A DNA stretch of 10,938 bases from Candidatus Hermodarchaeota archaeon (lineage in GTDB: Archaea > Asgardarchaeota > Lokiarchaeia > Sigyniarchaeales > SOKP01). The stretch spans positions 1 to 10,938 of the forward strand of contig JBHLLG010000095.1 of the NCBI GenBank assembly GCA_048885925.1. Reading direction: 5' to 3'. Each line of letters begins with the position of its first letter. Position 1 is the stretch's first letter. The notes under the pieces were generated by a model that searched no databases, was not told the origin of the DNA, and saw only the letters and a program-made list of their open reading frames with translations. Made by a program: the position numbers and the translations under genes. Shown here one piece after another: positions 219 through 10,938 of the stretch.

Positions 219-357
219 TATTCTAAAAAGATATCAAAAAACTATTTTCTTATCAATAAACTAATAAAAATAAATAATAGTAAAAACTAAATATTAAAAT
301 AAAGATTTTTGAAAACCAAAATTTAATTTTATTTTAAAAAATTAAGTGGAAAAAATT

Positions 358-1134
358 ATGCCGAGAGCAGGGAGAAGAGCACTGGAAAGAGAATATGATC
401 CCCTTGATGTATATAGTAAATGGGATAAAATTGGAGCCAAGACGATCTATTATGGCTTTATACTTGGTACAGTAGTAGTTGTATTAGGTGTATGGGTAGT
501 AATTATCTGGTTATTGGTTGGTGGAGGCTTTTGGGAATTTTGGAAAGGTATAGATCTTGGATTTCAAATTGCCATTATTGCTGGAGCAATTACTGGTCAT
601 TTATTCTTATTAGTCCTCTTTTATACACTGTTCCGTGGAGGAATGGTGCGATTATGCCAGATAATGTATAAAGATCGGTTAATTGCGAGTAAATGGGCCG
701 ATTATTACGGTTTACGTATGCTTGTAGGTGTTGCTCTTTTAGGGCTTTATATTACCCTTATAAGTGTTGTTATAGGTTTACTACCATCAACCTTTTTAGA
801 TGTAGTAAAGAAAGTATGGGCTTGGCAGGTTGAAACATTCAATGCGGGGTTATGGATTATGTGGGTAGGAGCACTTATATTTCTCTTTGTAATAATTATC
901 TTTCTTGGACTTATGATATGGAATAAAGGTGTATTTTGGGTTCTTTCACATGTCAAAGAAATTGAAGAGGAAATGGAAGTTGAGGAAAATATTAAGAAAG
1001 AAGCCATAAAGAATTCAGATGAAAGAACACTCAGAGATATTTACAAGAAAGAAACGGGACAAAAAGCAATACATCGAGGTAGAGAAACCCGTGGATATAA
1101 AGAGTGGAAACAAAAGCTAGGAATAAAGGAATAA
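358..1134 (+). CDS. Uncharacterised integral membrane protein (about 4 TM helices, charged C-terminal tail)
   Basis: ORF of 258 aa from ATG 358 (262 aa from GTG 346). Four long hydrophobic segments, then an acidic helical stretch and the motif YKKETGQKAIHRGRETRGYKEW. Confidence 0.85.
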   Translation: MPRAGRRALEREYDPLDVYSKWDKIGAKTIYYGFILGTVVVVLGVWVVIIWLLVGGGFWEFWKGIDLGFQIAIIAGAITGHLFLLVLFYTLFRGGMVRLCQIMYKDRLIASKWADYYGLRMLVGVALLGLYITLISVVIGLLPSTFLDVVKKVWAWQVETFNAGLWIMWVGALIFLFVIIIFLGLMIWNKGVFWVLSHVKEIEEEMEVEENIKKEAIKNSDERTLRDIYKKETGQKAIHRGRETRGYKEWKQKLGIKE

Positions 1135-1178: not shown

Positions 1179-2111
1179 TTATCTTCTCATCATTCGTGGA
1201 TTTCTGAATAAATCCATTTCTTGTTTTGGCATTTTGTAATCAGTGGTTGCTGTCTTTTTCATTTGTTTATAAAACTTCTTAATCATCTTTTCTGCATCGT
1301 GCATAAAATTACAGATGCATCCAAATAATATCATATAGAGTACAAAACTTTTGTCTTTTGCATAGGCTTCATCAGAAATCTGAATTTCAAAATTTTTCTG
1401 TACTCTTTGACCGTCTACTCGAGCAACTTTTTGATCACCGATATAGATCCAGTAATTTCTACCTGGACCTACAATACCCTTTGCCATAACTACTTGGAGT
1501 TTATCATCTTTTTGTTCTGGAAGAAGTGGCCAATTCCATCTTGTTCCCAATAATCTCCAACCTCTTACTACTTTAGCTAAATGGATCATTCTTGGATTCT
1601 GCATAATAAAAACAGGGGCAGGGTGTCTGATTTCATAACTTTGGATTAACGAGTGAGACACACTAAATTCAAATCCACCTTTAAAGGTTCCCCCTTTGGG
1701 TTGTGCATCCATTGATTCTTCCATAATGGTAAAAATACGACATACTAGACGTTTTTCTTCAAGAGGTTTTTCCTCCCAATCATCCTTACTAAACGCAATA
1801 ATGTACTTTTTCTCTCCATCTTCTTCTACTACTCCTTCAATATCGAAATTCTTAGAAAACCAACGTGTTTTAGCTTGGTATTTAAGCTGTTGATGAACTC
1901 CCAATTCTTCATCATGTAAACGAGTCCGCCAAAAATTTACTTTAATTTTTTTATACACTGCTTTTTTAGGTGGTACAGGAGCTTCTGGAGTTGGTTCTTT
2001 TTTTGATGGCTTGGAAACTTTCTTTTTTACCGGTTTAGCTCTTGCTTTTTCTCGAGGTTTAGCTTCCTTTTCCATTTTTTCTAATTCTTCTACTGGATCT
2101 TCTTCTGACAT
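1179..2111 (-). CDS. Hypothetical protein, probable LURP-one-related/Tubby-C/scramblase-like beta-barrel with a disordered K/E/P-rich N-terminus
   Basis: 310-aa ORF. The C-terminal pattern AKG...NYWIYIGDQKVARVD...NFEIQI...KSFVLYMILFGCICNF resembles the last strands plus buried hydrophobic helix of LOR/scramblase proteins (recognised by eye). The CDS is firm; the fold is tentative. Confidence 0.7.
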   Translation of the reverse strand: MSEEDPVEELEKMEKEAKPREKARAKPVKKKVSKPSKKEPTPEAPVPPKKAVYKKIKVNFWRTRLHDEELGVHQQLKYQAKTRWFSKNFDIEGVVEEDGEKKYIIAFSKDDWEEKPLEEKRLVCRIFTIMEESMDAQPKGGTFKGGFEFSVSHSLIQSYEIRHPAPVFIMQNPRMIHLAKVVRGWRLLGTRWNWPLLPEQKDDKLQVVMAKGIVGPGRNYWIYIGDQKVARVDGQRVQKNFEIQISDEAYAKDKSFVLYMILFGCICNFMHDAEKMIKKFYKQMKKTATTDYKMPKQEMDLFRNPRMMRR

Positions 2112-2330: not shown

Positions 2331-4508
2331 TCACTTTTTGAGTTTATGGTTCTTATCAATCTTTTCCAGCTTTTTCCCACGCTTAAGATAGTTCCTAATT
2401 AAAACAATAGAAGTAACACCAACAACGGAACTAATCGTTATTGCGGATATAATAATTATGGCTTTTAAAGCAAGAGGTAATCGAACAACAATATATACAT
2501 TGTTAGATAAAGTAAAGCCCATTTCATTATAAGCTGCCACCGCAAAATAGTATTTTCCGTTGGATAATCCAGTTACATGAAATGATGTCTCTGTGGTTAG
2601 ATTAGCTAAGCATGTGAGACTTCCATTTATAGAGGTGATTTGATTTGTATAACGAAATACAGAATAATTATCCGCTCTCTCAGATTCATCCCAATCTAGA
2701 TCAAAAGTACCGTCAGTGTCTGTTGGATCAGCATTATCAATCAAATTAAAAGGCTCTGGTCCAGGTACACTAACGTAAGTATAATTAGAAGACATTGTTT
2801 CACCAGTTTCATTATATGCAACGACCCTAAAATAATAATTTCCTTGTTTCAAAGACACTGAAAACGGAGTTGTTGCTGTTTGATAAGCGAGTAAGTCAAA
2901 TTTCTTACTAATATATGTAATTGGACTATCGGACATGTATATAGAATAATTTTCTGCACCCTCAGATTTCGTCCACGTTAGATTAAATTTACCATCATAA
3001 TCAGGACTCTCAGCGGTGCAATTTAAATAGAAGTCCCCAGGTGGATCTGGTGGATCAGTAAGAAGACCGTTAATTCCCCAGTACGGAAGCCTATAAGAAC
3101 CTGTCCAGAGAGAGTCGGGATACGCTGCAGGGTATTGAGAAAAAACCTTTACAACGCGAAGAACCACCTTAGTTCCATCGATATACTTCCAATGACAAAA
3201 TAAACTATAGCCGAAAGGATAACCATATATCAAATCATGGTTTAAAGGATTAAAAGCGGTTAATCCACCAACCCCAATAAAAGGATTGGTATTATTGATT
3301 TTTTCTAAAGCTGCTACAGTTACATCCGGATCAAAGGTTTGAGTCTCATTTACCGTTTTTACTAATAATTTAATAGCATCAAATGCACCTGCAGCGGTAA
3401 AATATGGATCAATACCATATTCATTGAAATAACTCGCAAAAAAGGGAATTGTCAATGGTGTTTTTGACGTATTATAGAAATATTGAAGGTTTACCACAAA
3501 TCGAAACGCACCTTCACTATAATCCCAATCTGTATACAAACTTCCAAAAGGACTGAAACTAAGGACTGCACATTGAGGTTTTACTTGTTGATATGCTTGA
3601 AACAACAATTTTCCAGTATCAGGACGACCAAACATTGAATAGACTTCCGAGATTCCAGCCGATTCAATAATATTCCAATAATTTATATAATCTGTAAGTG
3701 TAGCTCCAGTTGGGATTATAATGTCTTCTTCAACACCTATACCATATGAAGGAAGAGTATTCTTGATTTCGATAGCGAAAAAACCGAAAAGATCTATATC
3801 TTCACGTATTATTGCTGTCTTGTTTATTATGCCGGCATCTATACTATTTAAATAATAAACACCCATAATTGCGTAATTTAAATAATCCCATAATATACCA
3901 GTTAGATTAGCGGGTGAGATCCTGAAAAAATACTTATATTTCTCATAATTGCTTAGAACTCTTTCACATATTGTATTAGCGCCATCTCCGGTTCCCAGAA
4001 ATGGAATTTTGTTATCCATTACTACATCTTGATAATCACGAAGCTCAGAGCCACCAATAATGAAATGAGGGTGGTGTTCTTTTATGATTTTTTTAGCGGC
4101 TGCAATTGGTTCTGATACTGATCCATATACTTCATTGGTATTTTCTGCTACAAGGCCTACATAATAATTATTTCCATTTATTATGATACCCCCTTCCTCA
4201 TTAACTTCTTTTGCTGCGAGATATGCCCCCTTCCAAGCATGGACGCCTGTTATATAATTTAAATCGTCTAATACTCCAACTTTCATTATCCGGTTTAACG
4301 GTACAGTTTCTGGACCACCTGGAACGATATAATCATGTGAGGGATAAAGGTCAACACTGAAATAATATACACCAGCAATAATACTCGCGATTGTAATAAC
4401 ACCTATAATCCCACCAATGAGGAGTGACTTCTTTTGAGCTCTTAGCCTTTGGATTTTTAGAAATTTCTTTTTTTCATTAGGAATCTTATCGCTGATCTTC
4501 ACTCTCAT
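2331..4508 (-). CDS. Membrane-anchored type-1 periplasmic-binding-fold protein (LivJ/branched-chain amino acid ABC substrate-binding-like) with two FN3-like domains and a C-terminal TM; copy A
   Basis: Basic N-tail and TM (LLIGGIIGVITIASIIAGVYYF). LivJ-family motifs MKVGVL, GAYLAAKEVNEEGGI, KIPFL, YFFRISP, AFDAIKLL. PPDPPG linker. Two repeats of LxW...AxNYS...GxYYFxVxAYNExG. TM plus Lys-rich tail. ATG at 4508 is shared by both copies; TTG at 4520 is the alternative start. Confidence 0.85.
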   Translation of the reverse strand: MRVKISDKIPNEKKKFLKIQRLRAQKKSLLIGGIIGVITIASIIAGVYYFSVDLYPSHDYIVPGGPETVPLNRIMKVGVLDDLNYITGVHAWKGAYLAAKEVNEEGGIIINGNNYYVGLVAENTNEVYGSVSEPIAAAKKIIKEHHPHFIIGGSELRDYQDVVMDNKIPFLGTGDGANTICERVLSNYEKYKYFFRISPANLTGILWDYLNYAIMGVYYLNSIDAGIINKTAIIREDIDLFGFFAIEIKNTLPSYGIGVEEDIIIPTGATLTDYINYWNIIESAGISEVYSMFGRPDTGKLLFQAYQQVKPQCAVLSFSPFGSLYTDWDYSEGAFRFVVNLQYFYNTSKTPLTIPFFASYFNEYGIDPYFTAAGAFDAIKLLVKTVNETQTFDPDVTVAALEKINNTNPFIGVGGLTAFNPLNHDLIYGYPFGYSLFCHWKYIDGTKVVLRVVKVFSQYPAAYPDSLWTGSYRLPYWGINGLLTDPPDPPGDFYLNCTAESPDYDGKFNLTWTKSEGAENYSIYMSDSPITYISKKFDLLAYQTATTPFSVSLKQGNYYFRVVAYNETGETMSSNYTYVSVPGPEPFNLIDNADPTDTDGTFDLDWDESERADNYSVFRYTNQITSINGSLTCLANLTTETSFHVTGLSNGKYYFAVAAYNEMGFTLSNNVYIVVRLPLALKAIIIISAITISSVVGVTSIVLIRNYLKRGKKLEKIDKNHKLKK

Positions 4509-4529
4509 CAATATTTTCAAGGTGATTTT

Positions 4530-4792: not shown

Positions 4793-6352
4793 TTATTCGA
4801 GTTCAATTTTATTATTGCATGACCAGCATGTTTCGCCTTTCTTCTTTAAGACAGTAGCACATTTCATGCAATAATAAGTTTCACACTTAGGACAAATATA
4901 TACTGCCCCAACAATTTTTCCTCTATGTACAACACATGTATGATACTCTTTTTCTACACTCACTTCAGCTTCAGTTTTTCGTAATTCTTCTAATTCCTGA
5001 GAGCTTAATGTGGTTCTGGAAATTAATTTTTCTCTTGAGGATCTTTTTCTAAAAACATACAATCCAACAGCGACCATCGCACCGGCTATAGAAATCACGA
5101 TTATCATGACGATTTCAGGAGGAAATCCATTTTTATCTATGCACTTATTATTTTTAAATTTATTTCCTTCACATTCTTCTTCTTCTAGAGCGACGAAATT
5201 GTCACATACATCGTTGTCATATACATAATTATAATTAGATTTTACTAAATATAGACCATACTTAGTGTTATTGTTTATCTTATTTTCCATAATGTCTGTA
5301 TAATTAGAATTTTCCAAATAAATTCCAATTGCATTATCAATTATGTTGTTATTAGTGATATTATTAATCTCAGAATTCATTAACAAAATGCCAGTATCTA
5401 TATTAGAACTTATATTGTTTTCAAAAAATTGGTTATATCCTTTATCCTCTAAATGAATACCATATTCATTTCTACTAATGTTATTTTTAGATGTCATAAT
5501 ACCTGAACAACTATCCATTTCTACCCCTGAGTAATCGTTGTTATATATTTCATTATTATATAAAAAGTCCTCTAAACCTTCAGTTATTAATATTCCAGAT
5601 TTATCATTATTATATATTTTATTATTTAAAATGTTGTTTCTCCGAGTAAAGACGAGTCTTATACCGTTGTTATAGTTATTATATATTGAATTATAAGCAA
5701 TAATATTGGTGCCCGGATTATTAGCTAAATAAATGCCATCATTATTATTGCTTATATTATTCAATGTAATTATATGATTCTCACCTATTGACGTCTTCAG
5801 CCCATAACTAGTGTTATTATTTATGATATTTCCAGATATGTTATTATTTTTACCCGATTTTAATAATATACCGTTTCCTTTATTGTTGGAGCAGTTATTT
5901 TTAATTAATTTTCCATTGTTTACAAACATTAACTTAATTCCTCCATTTTCATCCAAATCAGGTCCAGAATTAGATAGCGTACAATTTCTAATTATAAAAT
6001 AATCATTTGAATCTCTAATCTCGATACAATTGCCCAGGCCTTGACCATCAATTGTAATATTTTCAATAATATATGGATTTTCTAAAGTTCCATTACCTCC
6101 ACCATACCAGGTTTGATTTTCAAACCACGTCCAATTATGAGCTCCAATTCCAGTCCAATCACCATCAATAAAAATGGGTGTTCCGGTAAGATTCCAAAAA
6201 CCTGAAGATTTTAGATTCTTTTCTGTCTGATTCTCAGAATTTATAAGCATTTCTATTGTAGTTAAATTAGAATATAGATTAACCCTGTTTGTTAATAATG
6301 AGATAAAAGTGAGTGTAACTAAGATAATGGTAATTTTCTTAGGTAAATTCAT
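4793..6352 (-). CDS. NosD-like right-handed parallel beta-helix surface protein with TM helix and cytoplasmic RING-like zinc finger; copy A
   Basis: N-terminal signal/anchor. Cap motif GNGTLENPYIIENITIDG...YFIIRNCT. Many ~22-24 aa repeats of GIxLxxxxxNxIxxNxIxNN. TM at about 5051-5113 followed by RKR. Eight-ligand zinc motif at 4817-4936. Confidence 0.9.
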   Translation of the reverse strand: MNLPKKITIILVTLTFISLLTNRVNLYSNLTTIEMLINSENQTEKNLKSSGFWNLTGTPIFIDGDWTGIGAHNWTWFENQTWYGGGNGTLENPYIIENITIDGQGLGNCIEIRDSNDYFIIRNCTLSNSGPDLDENGGIKLMFVNNGKLIKNNCSNNKGNGILLKSGKNNNISGNIINNNTSYGLKTSIGENHIITLNNISNNNDGIYLANNPGTNIIAYNSIYNNYNNGIRLVFTRRNNILNNKIYNNDKSGILITEGLEDFLYNNEIYNNDYSGVEMDSCSGIMTSKNNISRNEYGIHLEDKGYNQFFENNISSNIDTGILLMNSEINNITNNNIIDNAIGIYLENSNYTDIMENKINNNTKYGLYLVKSNYNYVYDNDVCDNFVALEEEECEGNKFKNNKCIDKNGFPPEIVMIIVISIAGAMVAVGLYVFRKRSSREKLISRTTLSSQELEELRKTEAEVSVEKEYHTCVVHRGKIVGAVYICPKCETYYCMKCATVLKKKGETCWSCNNKIELE

Positions 6353-6667: not shown

Positions 6668-8875
6668 TCACTTTTTAAGTTTATGTTTTTTATCAACCTT
6701 TTCCAGCTTTTTCTCACGCTTAAGATAGTTTCTAATTAAGACAATAGAACTAACACCAACAACGGAACTAATCGTTATGGCAGATATAATAATTATGAGC
6801 TTTATATCCATAGGTAATCGAACAACAATATCCCTATTGTTAGATAAGGTATATCCCATCTCATTATAGGCAGCAACCGCAAAATAGTATCTTCCGGTGG
6901 ATAATCCAGTTACATGAAATGATGTCTCTGTGGTTAGATTAGCTAAGCATGTGAGACTTCCATTTATAGAAGTGATTTTACTTTTATAATGATATACAGA
7001 ATAATTATCGGCTCTCTCAGATTCATCCCAATCTAGATCAAAAGTACCGTCAGTGTCTGTTCCAACAGTATTATCACGCAAATCAAAAGGCTCTGGTCCA
7101 GGTATACTAACGTAAATATCATTATAAGAATAAGACATAGTTTCACCAGTTTCATTATATGCGACAACCCTAAAATAATACTCTCCTTTTTTCAAAGACA
7201 TTGAAAAAGGAGATGTTGCATTTTGATAAGCAAGTAAGTCAAATTTCTTACTAATATATTTAATTGGACTATCGGACATGTATATAGAATAATTATCTGC
7301 GCCCGTAGAATTAGTCCAAGTCAGATTAAATTCTCCATCATAATCATAAGGAGTCTCAGCAGTACTGTTCATTGTGAAGTTTCCCGGTGGCTGAGGCGGA
7401 TCAGTGAGAAGACCGTTAATCCCCCAGTACGGAAGCCTTAGAGAACCTGTTGCGATTTCTTCGGGATACCCCTTATACCCCACCATTCCTTCCTCAAAGG
7501 GAACAATTGATTCATGCGGAACAACTTCCCTAGAACCATCGATATATTTCCATTGACAGAATAAAGCATACGAATAAGGCCAGCCATATACCAAATCATG
7601 TTTGTTATCGAAAGCAAGATTACCACCTGGCCCAACAACATAATTAGTACTATTAATTTTTTCTAAAGTGGATACAGTTATATCAGGATCAAATGTTTGG
7701 GTCTCATTGACTGTTTGAACTAATAATTTAACAGCTCCATAAGAACCTACACCTATATAATATGGGTCAATACCGTATTCATTAACATAACGATTAAAGA
7801 AGGGAATTGTTAATGGAGTTTTTGATGTATTATAGGTACCTTGTAATAAAATCTCATACTGACACGCTCCTTCATCATAATCCCAATCAGTATTAAGTTG
7901 GCCAAAGGAACTTAAACTCACAATTAAACATTTAGGTTGTAATTGTTGGTATGTTTGAGACATTAATTTTCCGAAAAGAGGATTAATAAAAAACGTCGAA
8001 CAGACTACTTGAACTCCCTTAGATTCAATTTGATTCCAAAAATTGATAAAATCTGCTTCTGTAACATTATATGGTAATATTTCATCTACTACAACCGATA
8101 TATTACTTTTAGGAAACTCCTGATAGATTAAATTAGCACAAAACGTAGATATAATATTGTCATCGCGGAGTATGGCGGTCTTGTTTACGATTCCAGCATC
8201 TATACTGTTTAGATAATAATAAAGGTAAACAATGTAACTTAAATAATCAGAATATATACAGGCAATATTATTGGGTGAGATTCTAAAAAAATATTTATAT
8301 TTCTCATAATTATCCAGTACTTTTTGACAAAAGTTCCATCCAGCTGCTCCAGTTCCTAGAAATGGTATTTTTTCTTCCATGATCACATCTAAATAATTAT
8401 AGAGAAATTCACTATAACCTCCAGTAATGAAATGAGGGTGGTGTTCTTTTATGATTTTTTTAGCGGAGGCGTTTCCTTCTAACACTGTTCCATATACTTC
8501 ATTGGTATTTTCTGCTACAAGTCCTACATAATAATTATTTCCATTTATTATAATACCCCCTTCCTCATTAACTTCTTTTGCTGCGAGATATGCCCCCTTC
8601 CAAGCATGATCTCCCGTAAAATGATTAAGATCGTCTAATACTCCAATCTTTATTATCCGGTTTGACGGTACAGTTGGTGGACCACCTGGAACGATATAAT
8701 CATGTGAGGGATAAAGGTCAACACTGAAATAATATACACCAGCAATAATACCCGCGATTGTAATAACCCCTATAATCCCACCAATGAGGAGTGACTTCTT
8801 TTGAGCTCTTAACCTTCGGATTTTTAGAAATTTCTTTTTTTCATTAGGAATCTTATCGCTGATCTTCACTCTCAT
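6668..8875 (-). CDS. Membrane-anchored type-1 periplasmic-binding-fold protein with two FN3-like domains and a C-terminal TM; copy B
   Basis: Same architecture and motifs as 2331-4508 (IKIGVL, GAYLAAKEVNEEGGI, YFFRISP, PPQPPG, two FN3-like repeats, TM, basic tail). The ORF track starts it at 8920; ATG 8875 is the start equivalent to copy A. Confidence 0.85.
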   Translation of the reverse strand: MRVKISDKIPNEKKKFLKIRRLRAQKKSLLIGGIIGVITIAGIIAGVYYFSVDLYPSHDYIVPGGPPTVPSNRIIKIGVLDDLNHFTGDHAWKGAYLAAKEVNEEGGIIINGNNYYVGLVAENTNEVYGTVLEGNASAKKIIKEHHPHFITGGYSEFLYNYLDVIMEEKIPFLGTGAAGWNFCQKVLDNYEKYKYFFRISPNNIACIYSDYLSYIVYLYYYLNSIDAGIVNKTAILRDDNIISTFCANLIYQEFPKSNISVVVDEILPYNVTEADFINFWNQIESKGVQVVCSTFFINPLFGKLMSQTYQQLQPKCLIVSLSSFGQLNTDWDYDEGACQYEILLQGTYNTSKTPLTIPFFNRYVNEYGIDPYYIGVGSYGAVKLLVQTVNETQTFDPDITVSTLEKINSTNYVVGPGGNLAFDNKHDLVYGWPYSYALFCQWKYIDGSREVVPHESIVPFEEGMVGYKGYPEEIATGSLRLPYWGINGLLTDPPQPPGNFTMNSTAETPYDYDGEFNLTWTNSTGADNYSIYMSDSPIKYISKKFDLLAYQNATSPFSMSLKKGEYYFRVVAYNETGETMSYSYNDIYVSIPGPEPFDLRDNTVGTDTDGTFDLDWDESERADNYSVYHYKSKITSINGSLTCLANLTTETSFHVTGLSTGRYYFAVAAYNEMGYTLSNNRDIVVRLPMDIKLIIIISAITISSVVGVSSIVLIRNYLKREKKLEKVDKKHKLKK

Positions 8876-8896
8876 CAACATTTTCAAGGTAATTTT

Positions 8897-8915
8897 TATT
8901 ATAATTGTTATAATT
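8897..8915 (-). promoter_or_regulatory. Putative TATA box(es) for the binding-protein gene, copy B
   Basis: Same sequence and spacing as 4530-4548, relative to ATG 8875. Confidence 0.4.
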
Positions 8916-9156
8916 ATCAATATTTCTATGCAAAAATGAACTAAATAAAAAATAAGCAGGAAAAGGTAAAACTAGCCATATTTTTATATGTACCCTCATT
9001 GATTTCACATAAATTGGTTTTCAAAATACAATTAAGATAACCTAAAATTTAAGGATATCGTAGAATATAGTAGAGTGATTAGGTATGTCAACCCTATGAT
9101 CAGAAATACTTCAGCCACATTTAATTTTCAATTGATTAATAATTTATTGTTGTTAA

Positions 9157-10707
9157 TTATTTGAGTTCAATTTTATTATGGCATGCCCAGCATGTTTCGC
9201 CTTTCTTCTTTAATACAGTAGCACATTTCATACAATAATAAGTCTCACATTTGGGGCATAAATATATCGCACCAACAATTTTGCCTCTATGTACAATACA
9301 GACATGATGTTCTTTTTCTACACTCACTTCAGCTTCAGTTTTTTGTAATTCTTCTAATTCCTGAGAACTTAATATACTTTTAGAAATTAATCTTTTTTTT
9401 GAGGTTTTTCTTCTAAAAACAATCATCCCTACAGCGAATATTATACCGGCAATAGAAATCACGATTATCACGACGATTTCAGGAGGAAATCCATTTTTAT
9501 CTATGCACCAATTATTATTGTTAAATGTATTTCCTTCACATTCTACTTCTTCTAGAGGCTTGAAATTGTCACATACCTCGTTGTTAGATATAGAATTATA
9601 ATTAGATTTTACTAAATATAGACCCCAATTAGTGTTATTGTTTATGTTATTTTCCATAATGTAATTACTATTAGAATTTTCAAAATAAATTCCAATTTCA
9701 TTATTATTTACATTATTTTTAATGATATTATTATTAATAGAGTTTAATATCACAATTCCAGTATCTCTATTGAAACTCACAGTGTTGTCAAAAATTGTAT
9801 TGGAATAATACCGCTCCAAATAAATTCCATATTCATTAGAACTAATACTATTATTTGAGATTATAATACCTTGAGTATTATCTATTTCTACTCCCGAGTA
9901 ATTGTTGTTATATATTTCATTATTACTGATAATAATATCAATGCATTGATTGACATATATTCCAGAATTGTTATTATTATGAATGCTATTATTTAAAATA
10001 TTGGTCTTACGAGTTCCGTTTAATATTATACCATTATTATAATTATTATTTATTATATTATCGGAGATTGTATTATTCGGTTCACCCGTTAAATAAATAC
10101 CATTACTGTTATGGCTAATATTATTTAATGTAAATATATTATGGTAGCTTATTATTGATTTTAATCCACATTGATCGTTGCTATTTATAAGGTTTCCAGA
10201 AATGTTGATATGCATACCATGATATAAGAATATCCCGTTGGCTTTATTGTTTGAGCAGGTGTTATTAATTAATTTTCCATTGTCAACCTCCAGTAATTTG
10301 ATTCCTCCATCAGCATCCGAAACAGATCCAGAATTAGATAACGTACAATTTCTAATTATAAAATATTTACTGGAATATCTAATCTCGATACAACTCCCCA
10401 ACCCTTGGCCATCAATCCATACATTTTCGATGATGTAAGGATCGTTCCAAGTGCCCGATCCAGAACACCAAGGGTAGATTGAAGCTGTATAAGTCCAGTT
10501 TTTAGTTGAAAGCCTATCGTCGATTAATATTTGGCTTCCTGTAAGATTCCAATAGCCCGAAGATTTCGGAATTTTCTCTATTTGGTCCTTAGAATTTGCA
10601 TTTGTTTTTATTTTAATTGATTTAGAATTTAGATTAACCCTATTAATCAATAATGAGAGAAAAATGAGAGTAATTAGGATAATGGTAATTTTTTTAGTTG
10701 AATTCAT
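9157..10707 (-). CDS. NosD-like right-handed parallel beta-helix surface protein with TM helix and cytoplasmic RING-like zinc finger; copy B
   Basis: Signal/anchor, cap motif WCSGSGTWNDPYIIEN, Asn-ladder repeats, TM IVVIIVISIAGIIFAVGMIVF followed by RRK, and zinc motif CIVH...CPKC...CMKC...CWAC at 9181-9300. Confidence 0.9.
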   Translation of the reverse strand: MNSTKKITIILITLIFLSLLINRVNLNSKSIKIKTNANSKDQIEKIPKSSGYWNLTGSQILIDDRLSTKNWTYTASIYPWCSGSGTWNDPYIIENVWIDGQGLGSCIEIRYSSKYFIIRNCTLSNSGSVSDADGGIKLLEVDNGKLINNTCSNNKANGIFLYHGMHINISGNLINSNDQCGLKSIISYHNIFTLNNISHNSNGIYLTGEPNNTISDNIINNNYNNGIILNGTRKTNILNNSIHNNNNSGIYVNQCIDIIISNNEIYNNNYSGVEIDNTQGIIISNNSISSNEYGIYLERYYSNTIFDNTVSFNRDTGIVILNSINNNIIKNNVNNNEIGIYFENSNSNYIMENNINNNTNWGLYLVKSNYNSISNNEVCDNFKPLEEVECEGNTFNNNNWCIDKNGFPPEIVVIIVISIAGIIFAVGMIVFRRKTSKKRLISKSILSSQELEELQKTEAEVSVEKEHHVCIVHRGKIVGAIYLCPKCETYYCMKCATVLKKKGETCWACHNKIELK

Positions 10708-10833: not shown

Positions 10834-10938
10834 TTATTGGAGTTCAATCTCATTTTTACATACTCCACAAGTCTCACCTTTATTCTTCATAATAGTAGCA
10901 CATTCCATGCAATAATAACTCTCACACTTTGGACATAA
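10834..10938 (-). CDS. 3' end of a third gene carrying the same RING-like zinc-finger tail (truncated by the window edge; not in the ORF track)
   Basis: Manual translation LCPKCESYYCMECATIMKNKGETCGVCKNEIELQ*, clearly paralogous to LCPKCETYYCMKCATVLKKKGETCWACHNKIELK*. Confidence 0.88.
   Translation of the reverse strand, partial: LCPKCESYYCMECATIMKNKGETCGVCKNEIELQ

Follow-up and report, generated by a model that had tools for sequence, protein, structure and literature searches.

The stretch of DNA analysed here, which we call the window, is an entire 10.9-kb contig (10,938 nucleotides; G000:C95, JBHLLG010000095.1) from the Lokiarchaeial genome of Candidatus Hermodarchaeota archaeon (G+C content 29%), and the close relatives of its proteins are labelled Promethearchaeota, Lokiarchaeota or Hodarchaeota in their source records. 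Its minus strand carries a tandem duplication of a two-gene unit, in which a gene for a receptor-like membrane protein with a beta-helix ectodomain, one transmembrane (TM) helix and a C-terminal zinc finger is followed by a gene for a second membrane protein with periplasmic-binding-protein (PBP)-like and fibronectin-III (FN3) regions (Table 1). That finger, the family to which it belongs and its connection to ubiquitin-like conjugation are the subject of this study. The two finger proteins (genes 1 and 2) have Pfam beta-helix/NosD matches at E 2e-38 to 4e-62 (for gene 1, Beta_helix E 2.2e-38 and NosD E 1e-31), carry tails of 83-84 residues beyond the TM helix and share 60% identity in the ectodomain and 85% in the finger. 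All 18 nearest homologues of gene 1 show the same beta-helix architecture, and 7 of 7 orthologous pairs from six other genomes preserve the order of the unit, with the beta-helix-TM-finger gene ahead of the PBP-FN3-TM gene on one strand.

In both copies the TM helix is followed by a basic patch, by ...ELEELRKTEAEVSVEKE and then by C-x2-H-x10-C-x2-C-x4-C-x2-C-x10-C-x2-C, as a first-pass annotation of this DNA had described. Its coordinates for the finger are exact: the ligand codons span 4817-4936 and 9181-9300 on the minus strand (first and last ligands at 4934-4936 and 4817-4819 in gene 1, and at 9298-9300 and 9181-9183 in gene 2). All eight ligands are invariant in 18 of the 18 closest homologues, as is the Tyr two residues ahead of ligand 3 that the annotation had also picked out, and a conserved acidic segment, TE.E..VEK, precedes the finger. 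A loosened form of the pattern matches 18 of the 44,567 six-frame open reading frames (ORFs) of the genome and none in each of 20 residue shuffles, so the pattern is not a product of chance; the strict form occurs in four ORFs, two of them within the window. Ligand 2, at which the His had been flagged as non-canonical, varies among metal ligands only: in 147 parsed domains, the sample used for all per-position residue counts, it is His in 145 and once each Asp and Cys. A second subfamily of the genome has Cys there, and in one paralogue ligand 5 is His. A beta-helix paralogue elsewhere in the genome (G000:C174:377-1603, minus strand) has Asp at ligand 2 (C-x2-D), and the third, truncated finger copy of the window (10837-10938) reads C-G-V-C in its last dyad in place of C-W-x-C. 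The beta-helix clade also keeps, without exception, a further His two residues ahead of ligand 1; because it is not kept across the wider family, it is unlikely to be a general metal ligand. The N-x-S/T sequons all lie before the last TM helix (18 of 18 in gene 1, 14 of 14 in gene 2) and the tail opens with a basic patch, so sequon placement and the positive-inside rule predict that the finger faces the cytoplasm.

Table 1 Genes and features of the window and of the conjugation clusters elsewhere in the same genome (positions refer to the window unless a contig is named)
Feature	Position	Strand	Description
Gene 1	4793-6352	-	519 aa; N-terminal signal anchor, NosD/right-handed beta-helix ectodomain, one TM helix, predicted cytoplasmic tail with terminal zinc finger
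Gene 1 ectodomain	5129-6271	-	Residues about 28-408; beta-helix repeats; 18 N-x-S/T sequons
Gene 1 TM helix	5048-5128	-	Residues 409-435 (Kyte-Doolittle scan); basic patch KRSSREK comes after
Gene 1 juxtamembrane linker	4976-5047	-	Basic patch and beginning of an acidic helix-like segment
Gene 1 conserved C-terminal module	4796-4975	-	Residues 460-519; TE.E..VEK pre-motif and eight-ligand finger (ligands 4817-4936)
Gene 2	9157-10707	-	516 aa; paralogue of gene 1; TM helix 9409-9495; finger ligands 9181-9300
Partner gene 1	2331-4520	-	729 aa; N-terminal anchor, Peripla_BP_6 solute-binding-like domain, FN3 region, TM helix, short Lys-rich tail (8 Lys); from Pfam matches and tail composition
Partner gene 2	6668-8920	-	750 aa, counted from the TTG start listed; 73% identical to its paralogue, partner gene 1; 9 Lys in tail
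Third finger-bearing gene	10837-10938	-	C-terminal 34 residues, cut by the contig end; hmmsearch E 2.4e-14
310-aa protein	1179-2111	-	76-81% identity in relatives, where it usually adjoins the finger/PBP pair
262-aa multi-TM protein	346-1134	+	No family match; kept (63% identity) beside the 310-aa gene in two relatives
Gene end entering from the contig edge	3-218	+	Lys/Glu-rich segment; small C-x2-C...C-x2-C zinc ribbon (Zn_ribbon_3 E 1.3e-4, below cut-off)
Canonical ubiquitin operon	G000:C4:80428-87026		Two or three ubiquitin-like proteins, winged helix-turn-helix protein, ThiF-type E1, E2, JAB, 386-aa multi-TM protein
Second conjugation cluster	G000:C41:17376-23012, on to G000:C120:3-4464		Ras-family GTPase, 887-aa protein with CN-hydrolase C-terminus, JAB, E1-like ThiF (294 aa), E2c
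Second conjugation cluster, after E2c			Multi-TM finger protein, PBP-like protein, FG-GAP-TM-finger protein of the window's subtype

The predicted structure of the finger bears out the first-pass claim of a RING-like domain. An AlphaFold2 model built on an alignment of the close-homologue tails (A1) has a pLDDT of 87 and a beta-beta-alpha fold (strands 12-17, 20-27 and 34-36; helix 37-45), in which two strands lead into ligands 3 and 5 and the helix begins at ligand 6. The 50 structural neighbours listed by VIA comprise 45 domains of RING, U-box or p44 type and 5 PolD zinc modules. RNF38 heads the list (Z 4.1, root-mean-square deviation (r.m.s.d.) 3.9 A, 55 residues aligned), and others include RNF12 (Z 3.8), p44 (Z 3.4) and the PA-TM-RING ligases RNF13 (Z 3.6) and RMR1 (Z 3.2); the p44 chains give the tightest superposition (r.m.s.d. 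2.1 A over 40 residues). Because the VIA rows tie within 1 Z, the modelled fold is RING-like in a way that does not separate p44 from E3 RINGs. Leads from the ESM Atlas, all below 0.9, point to RING, C1 and Prok-RING clusters.

Profile searches place the finger near several RING-type families and inside none, as it falls short of the curated thresholds of every named family tested and no Pfam or NCBIfam model reaches its cut-off on it. Its weak matches (MDM4 RING, zf-C3HC4_3, Prok-RING_1 and p44/Ssl1) are to cross-brace fingers throughout. The window proteins give weak matches to an ANCHR-like B-box (E 0.044), to C1_4 (E 0.095) and to TIGR00622 ssl1 (E 0.03). They have no match to Prok-RING_1 (PF14446), whereas a family member on another contig (C41:15623-15721) reaches 23.7 against a cut-off of 29.1 bits. 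Other sub-threshold matches of paralogues are to zf-C3HC4_3 (E 6.4e-4, 19.9 versus 27 bits), Prok-RING_1 (E 4.9e-4, 20.4 versus 29.1 bits) and zf-RING_16, and paralogues and relatives also match PHD and C1 models below threshold. Membership of the ANCHR-like B-box family (PF22586) was considered and rejected, at 14.3 versus 27 bits over profile positions 2-29 of 39, which correspond to ligands 1-6 only. Among solved chains, the best profile match is the MDM4 RING (HMMER, E 0.0063), over ligands 5-8 and the helix.

The first-pass annotation had likened the finger to that of TFIIH p44/Ssl1. Ligands 3-8 align with a solved p44 chain at identical spacing (x2, x4, x2, x10, x2) in HMMER, whereas the first dyad is C-x2-H and not C-x2-C. 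That the finger is a true member of the p44/Ssl1 C1_4 family is nevertheless very improbable. The weak matches on which such an assignment could draw (PF07975 at E 0.018-0.095, TIGR00622 at E 0.03, solved p44 chains at E 0.24, and p44 or Ssl1 chains in 10 of the 50 listed VIA rows) score far under the cut-offs (13.4 versus 28.9 bits for PF07975; 15 versus 45.1 bits for TIGR00622) and are equalled or bettered by E3 RINGs, namely MDM4 in the profile search and RNF38 in the structural one. The protein architecture is also unrelated, with no vWA or Ssl1 part and with the domain set on membrane receptors, tetratricopeptide-repeat (TPR) proteins and giant surface proteins.

The two receptor-like proteins of the window carry a real, conserved RING-like finger that belongs to a large undescribed family. 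A profile made from A1, run against 1.84 billion cluster representatives, retrieved 1061 of them at E<=1e-3 and 529 at E<=1e-10. The 150 best range in length from 55 to 5839 aa, with 28 above 1000 aa; 107 of them have a TM helix upstream of the finger, usually at a distance of 40 to 120 residues, which is the commonest layout of the family, and in 94 the protein ends within 6 residues of the finger. In 39 (including P0027, P0034 and P0041) the finger is followed by a further 40-120 residues, often about 65 or about 97-108 aa, which may form another conserved module. In the window genome, 16 ORFs match the finger profile, two of which are contig-end fragments, one of these probably continuing a gene on another contig, so that the genome has about 15 copies. 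They fall into a C-x2-H subtype, found on beta-helix and FG-GAP proteins and one TPR protein and including the copy with Asp at ligand 2, and a C-x2-C subtype, found on multi-TM, TPR and small proteins and including the copy with His at ligand 5. We found no published description of the family in the literature, a search that did not cover supplementary tables such as the asCOG lists, which may list it. The sources attach PF26037 to 6 of 120 listed relatives; this family may already cover the C-x2-C subtype. NCBI names one relative a 'B-box zinc finger protein' and another a 'DC1 domain-containing protein'.

The distribution of the finger is narrow. A profile search within the phylum found it in 117 of 399 genomes: in 109 of 133 genomes of one family-level clade (110 of 134 in the comparison with the E2 described below), in 4 of 4 of its sister family and in three single genomes elsewhere (1 of 14, 1 of 3 and 1 of 2), with 0 of 243 in the remaining 28 families. 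A scan for related loci by residue pattern, combined with A1, gave 11 loci, all in Promethearchaeota/-eia records and one labelled Hodarchaeota; this narrow scan says little about absence elsewhere.

The membrane-proximal position of the finger would also suit a FYVE- or C1-type domain that binds a membrane lipid or small ligand just beneath the membrane, and paralogues and relatives do match C1_2 (at best E 3.9e-5, 24.3 versus 26 bits, in a relative) and C1_1 weakly, in keeping with the DC1 name given to one of them. This function is highly unlikely: no FYVE model matches in the Pfam scan at E<=1, the same domain terminates soluble TPR proteins and small stand-alone proteins, the spacer between TM helix and finger is usually long (40 to 120 residues), and the gene context favours a ubiquitin-like system.

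That context is as follows. The first-pass annotation had counted on a ubiquitin system, and the window genome encodes ubiquitin-like proteins, E1, E2 and JAB. Its canonical ubiquitin operon (Table 1) closes with a 386-aa multi-TM protein that ends in a different RING-like finger with no Pfam family match; iterating the hidden Markov model of our family over the genome ORFs reached neither this RING (E > 1) nor other RING-like fingers (E > 0.07). The genome has three E2s in all, since the UQ_con model matches two more that each carry an HPN motif and Cys. One lies on contig C40, and the other, E2c (UQ_con E 8.8e-11), belongs to a second conjugation cluster in which no ubiquitin-like gene was seen. 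There, E2c and a multi-TM gene of the finger family lie tail-to-tail; the latter runs off the end of contig C41 and, judged by its sequence, appears to resume at the start of C120. In other species, a finger-family member lies within 1.5 kb of the E2c orthologue in 16 of 30 loci, a placement for which we estimate a chance of about 1% per locus (assuming no more than 16 copies in about 3.8 Mb). In the genome G225, E2c is followed by a PBP-like gene and then by a gene for a 525-aa protein with a window-type tail. Finger genes also cluster at the loci L059 (G207:C9, 11361-17016) and L056/L057: a tandem pair, each coding for about 900 aa, is found 6-9 kb away from E2c, and small finger proteins of 196-288 aa adjoin genes for proteins of about 880 and 173 aa, beside the beta-helix/PBP pair. 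His at ligand 5 was also seen among the E2c neighbours. Elsewhere in the window genome (G000:C27:32589-34289), a 567-aa protein combines repeated RWD/UBC-like (inactive E2-like) modules with a C-terminal Cys/His-rich RING-like finger.

Co-occurrence follows the same direction. E2c orthologues are present in 69 of 134 genomes of the clade, and all 69 have the finger, whereas none of the 24 finger-less genomes has E2c. Nor is the finger common in genomes that lack an E2: UQ_con is present in 116 of the 117 genomes that carry the finger, and the remaining one is 76% complete. Conversely, UQ_con E2s are present in 296 of the 399 genomes, including many clades without the finger. PADLOC returned no match for the window proteins and only generic JAB and E1 matches for the second cluster, so a defence-system reading was set aside.

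Three hydrophobic positions that we take, from RING-E2 structures, to be E2 contacts are near-invariant in the 147 domains: Val at C1+2 (143), Leu at C6+4 (141) and Trp at C7+1 (144). A basic residue (Lys/Arg) directly follows ligand 2 in 145 of the 147. According to a study of the RING of the archaeal small RING finger protein (srfp), that finger needs I30 and W58 for activity (PMC5654768). The docking to an E2 of the genome that the first-pass annotation had proposed was run with E2c (15-row alignment A2), the finger (A1) and two Zn, in three runs with three controls. The predicted complex had a median score of 0.75 (0.75, 0.76 and 0.71) against 0.00 for the best control. Among reference pairs, 58 of the 80 solved complexes reach this mark, as do 2 of the 110 mismatched ones; the runs share 100% of their contacts and the pLDDT of the partner is at least 83. 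E2c contributes helix 1 to the predicted interface, together with residues 121-122 and 124 of the loop that follows its catalytic Cys, presumably equivalent to the S-P-A loop in E2s of the UbcH5 type. On the finger side, residues 15-19, 38-39, 42, 46 and 51-52 make up the canonical RING surface (loop-1, helix, loop-2), where the conserved Val, Leu and Trp fall and where the basic residue after ligand 2 would contact the E2. Because many RING-E2 complexes are already solved, this pass mainly indicates that the pair looks to the model like a RING with its E2, rather than that the two bind.

Gene neighbourhood and predicted complex together point to E2 recruitment, and we conclude that the finger is probably a receptor-type RING E3 or E2 recruiter. 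Archaeal E1/E2/RING cascades work in vitro, according to reports on Caldiarchaeum (PMC5654768) and Helarchaeia (bioRxiv 10.1101/2023.07.25.550441).

Several observations weigh against this conclusion. The Lys/Arg linchpin after the last ligand is absent: the window copies have Asn or His there, and across the 147 domains the position is Lys in 8 and never Arg, with Glu, Asp, Gly or Asn in 127. The srfp study states that every E3 RING has Lys or Arg at the linchpin, and that the archaeal cascade is impaired by R69A (PMC5654768). The window proteins stay below the cut-off of every curated RING model, C1_4 being their sole RING-clan match at E<=1. Structural scores are low as well: a Foldseek search of the PDB gave nothing at E<=0.001, with an artificial finger best at E 0.1 and MDM2 RINGs next, and the best VIA Z of 4.1 lies in a range that the tool itself terms a possibly common arrangement. 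The cross-brace pairing that we assume (ligands 1, 2, 5 and 6 with one zinc and 3, 4, 7 and 8 with the other) is borrowed from the fold neighbours. As to genomic evidence, almost every genome of the clade has E2 genes (131 of 133), which makes general co-occurrence with E2s a weak test; the neighbour of E2c is usually of the multi-TM C-x2-C subtype and not of the window's C-x2-H subtype; the window contig holds no ubiquitin-system gene; and the neighbourhood and co-occurrence counts come from related genomes and are not independent observations.

The missing linchpin, in about 95% of the domains, also speaks for a non-catalytic alternative, in which the finger would be a RING-like interaction module, comparable to the C-terminal finger of p44 or to a B-box, that tethers the tails to a cytoplasmic partner or dimerises them without ubiquitin transfer. 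The candidate partners would include a scaffold, the Ras-like GTPase system and the conserved 310-aa neighbour. Features atypical of E3 RINGs (the TE.E..VEK pre-motif, the basic residue after ligand 2 and the Trp in place of Pro in the last knuckle), the tight superposition on p44, the sub-threshold C1_4, ssl1 and B-box matches of the window proteins and the B-box name given to one relative are all in keeping with it. It does not account as readily for a family kept beside the JAB/E1-like/E2 module at about half of the loci, for the nesting of all E2c-bearing genomes within the finger-bearing ones, for near-invariant residues at the canonical E2-contact positions or for a predicted E2 complex that passes its controls. 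We regard a purely adaptor-like finger as a rather unlikely alternative. Even so, it would be among the commonest cytoplasmic output modules of Lokiarchaeial surface proteins, and one that currently goes unannotated.

If the finger is a recruiter of E2s, as we favour, the proteins of the window may work as follows. The last 60 or so residues, lying in the cytoplasm at the end of a receptor-like membrane protein of type I, would form a binuclear, cross-brace RING-like finger and would bring a charged E2, the best candidate being E2c~Ubl of the JAB/E1-like/E2 cluster, to the membrane. The NosD-like beta-helix ectodomain may bind a ligand or the neighbouring PBP/FN3 protein, and the latter could be either a co-receptor that delivers the signal or a substrate through its Lys-rich tail (8-9 Lys). 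Candidate substrates also include the finger protein's own tail, which holds 11-14 Lys. Constructs of about 60 aa and a specific E2 make these steps testable at the bench.

We offer a broader generalisation only tentatively, as it is doubtful in its full extent: Promethearchaeia may own a large, lineage-specific family of receptor RING ligases, with varied ectodomains and often a PBP-like co-receptor, that signal to an E1-like/E2c/JAB module and ubiquitylate membrane proteins. The control of membrane proteins by ubiquitin through transmembrane RING ligases, feeding into ESCRT sorting, is regarded as a eukaryotic trait; the known equipment of Asgard archaea comprises ubiquitin, E1, E2, small RING proteins and ESCRT. 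If the generalisation holds, the family would represent, among prokaryotes, a counterpart and possibly a forerunner of eukaryotic transmembrane RING E3s and of ubiquitin-dependent receptor down-regulation, and both the receptor-E3 layout and a diversified E3 repertoire would have been present already in the archaeal relatives of eukaryotes.

Of the remaining genes of the window (Table 1), the 310-aa protein that usually accompanies the finger/PBP pair has no Pfam match and no solved relative in the PDB, and its only lead, from the ESM Atlas, is a Tubby/LOR-like one at 0.88.

Among known systems, the RING-HC fingers of MDM2, MDM4 and the IAPs (zf-C3HC4_3, PF13920) share with the Asgard finger the eight ligands, the x10 spacing between ligands 2 and 3 and between ligands 6 and 7, and the beta-beta-alpha fold; MDM4 also has the helix pattern C-x2-C-A-x2-L-K-K after ligand 6, followed by C-x2-C-x3-I. 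In contrast to them, the Asgard finger has a C-x2-C knuckle at ligands 3-4, x4 to ligand 5, a C-x2-H first dyad and Trp for Pro in the last knuckle, without the Lys/Arg linchpin or a long C-terminal dimerisation tail, and even its best paralogue stays under the Pfam cut-off. The p44/Ssl1 finger (PF07975, TIGR00622), which binds p34 within TFIIH, is alike in the spacing of ligands 3-8 and superposes most tightly, whereas the Asgard finger scores far below the cut-offs of that family and is set on membrane receptors and near an E1/E2/JAB cluster. The srfp/Prok-RING_1 (PF14446) proteins are archaeal RING-like fingers tied to E1/E2/JAB operons. The canonical operon of the window genome likewise ends in a multi-TM protein with a RING-like finger, and one paralogue of our family scores 20.4-23.7 bits against Prok-RING_1. 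The srfp protein is active in vitro as an E3 (PMC5654768). It differs in having an Arg linchpin. The Asgard family is much expanded, and in the window's subtype the finger is for the most part joined to a large ectodomain. Eukaryotic receptor RING E3s (RNF13/RNF128/RMR and RNF43/ZNRF3) differ in their parts from the Asgard proteins, which have beta-helix, FG-GAP and other ectodomains in place of the PA domain of the PA-TM-RING E3s and a finger that is not a RING-H2, with Cys at ligands 4 and 5. The resemblance, in which the fold is the shared element, may be an analogy or a very distant kinship. The parallel that the first-pass annotation had drawn with them is nonetheless real at the level of layout: ectodomain, single TM helix and RING-like finger on the predicted cytoplasmic side follow one another in the window proteins, and a TM helix precedes the finger in most of the best representatives of the family.

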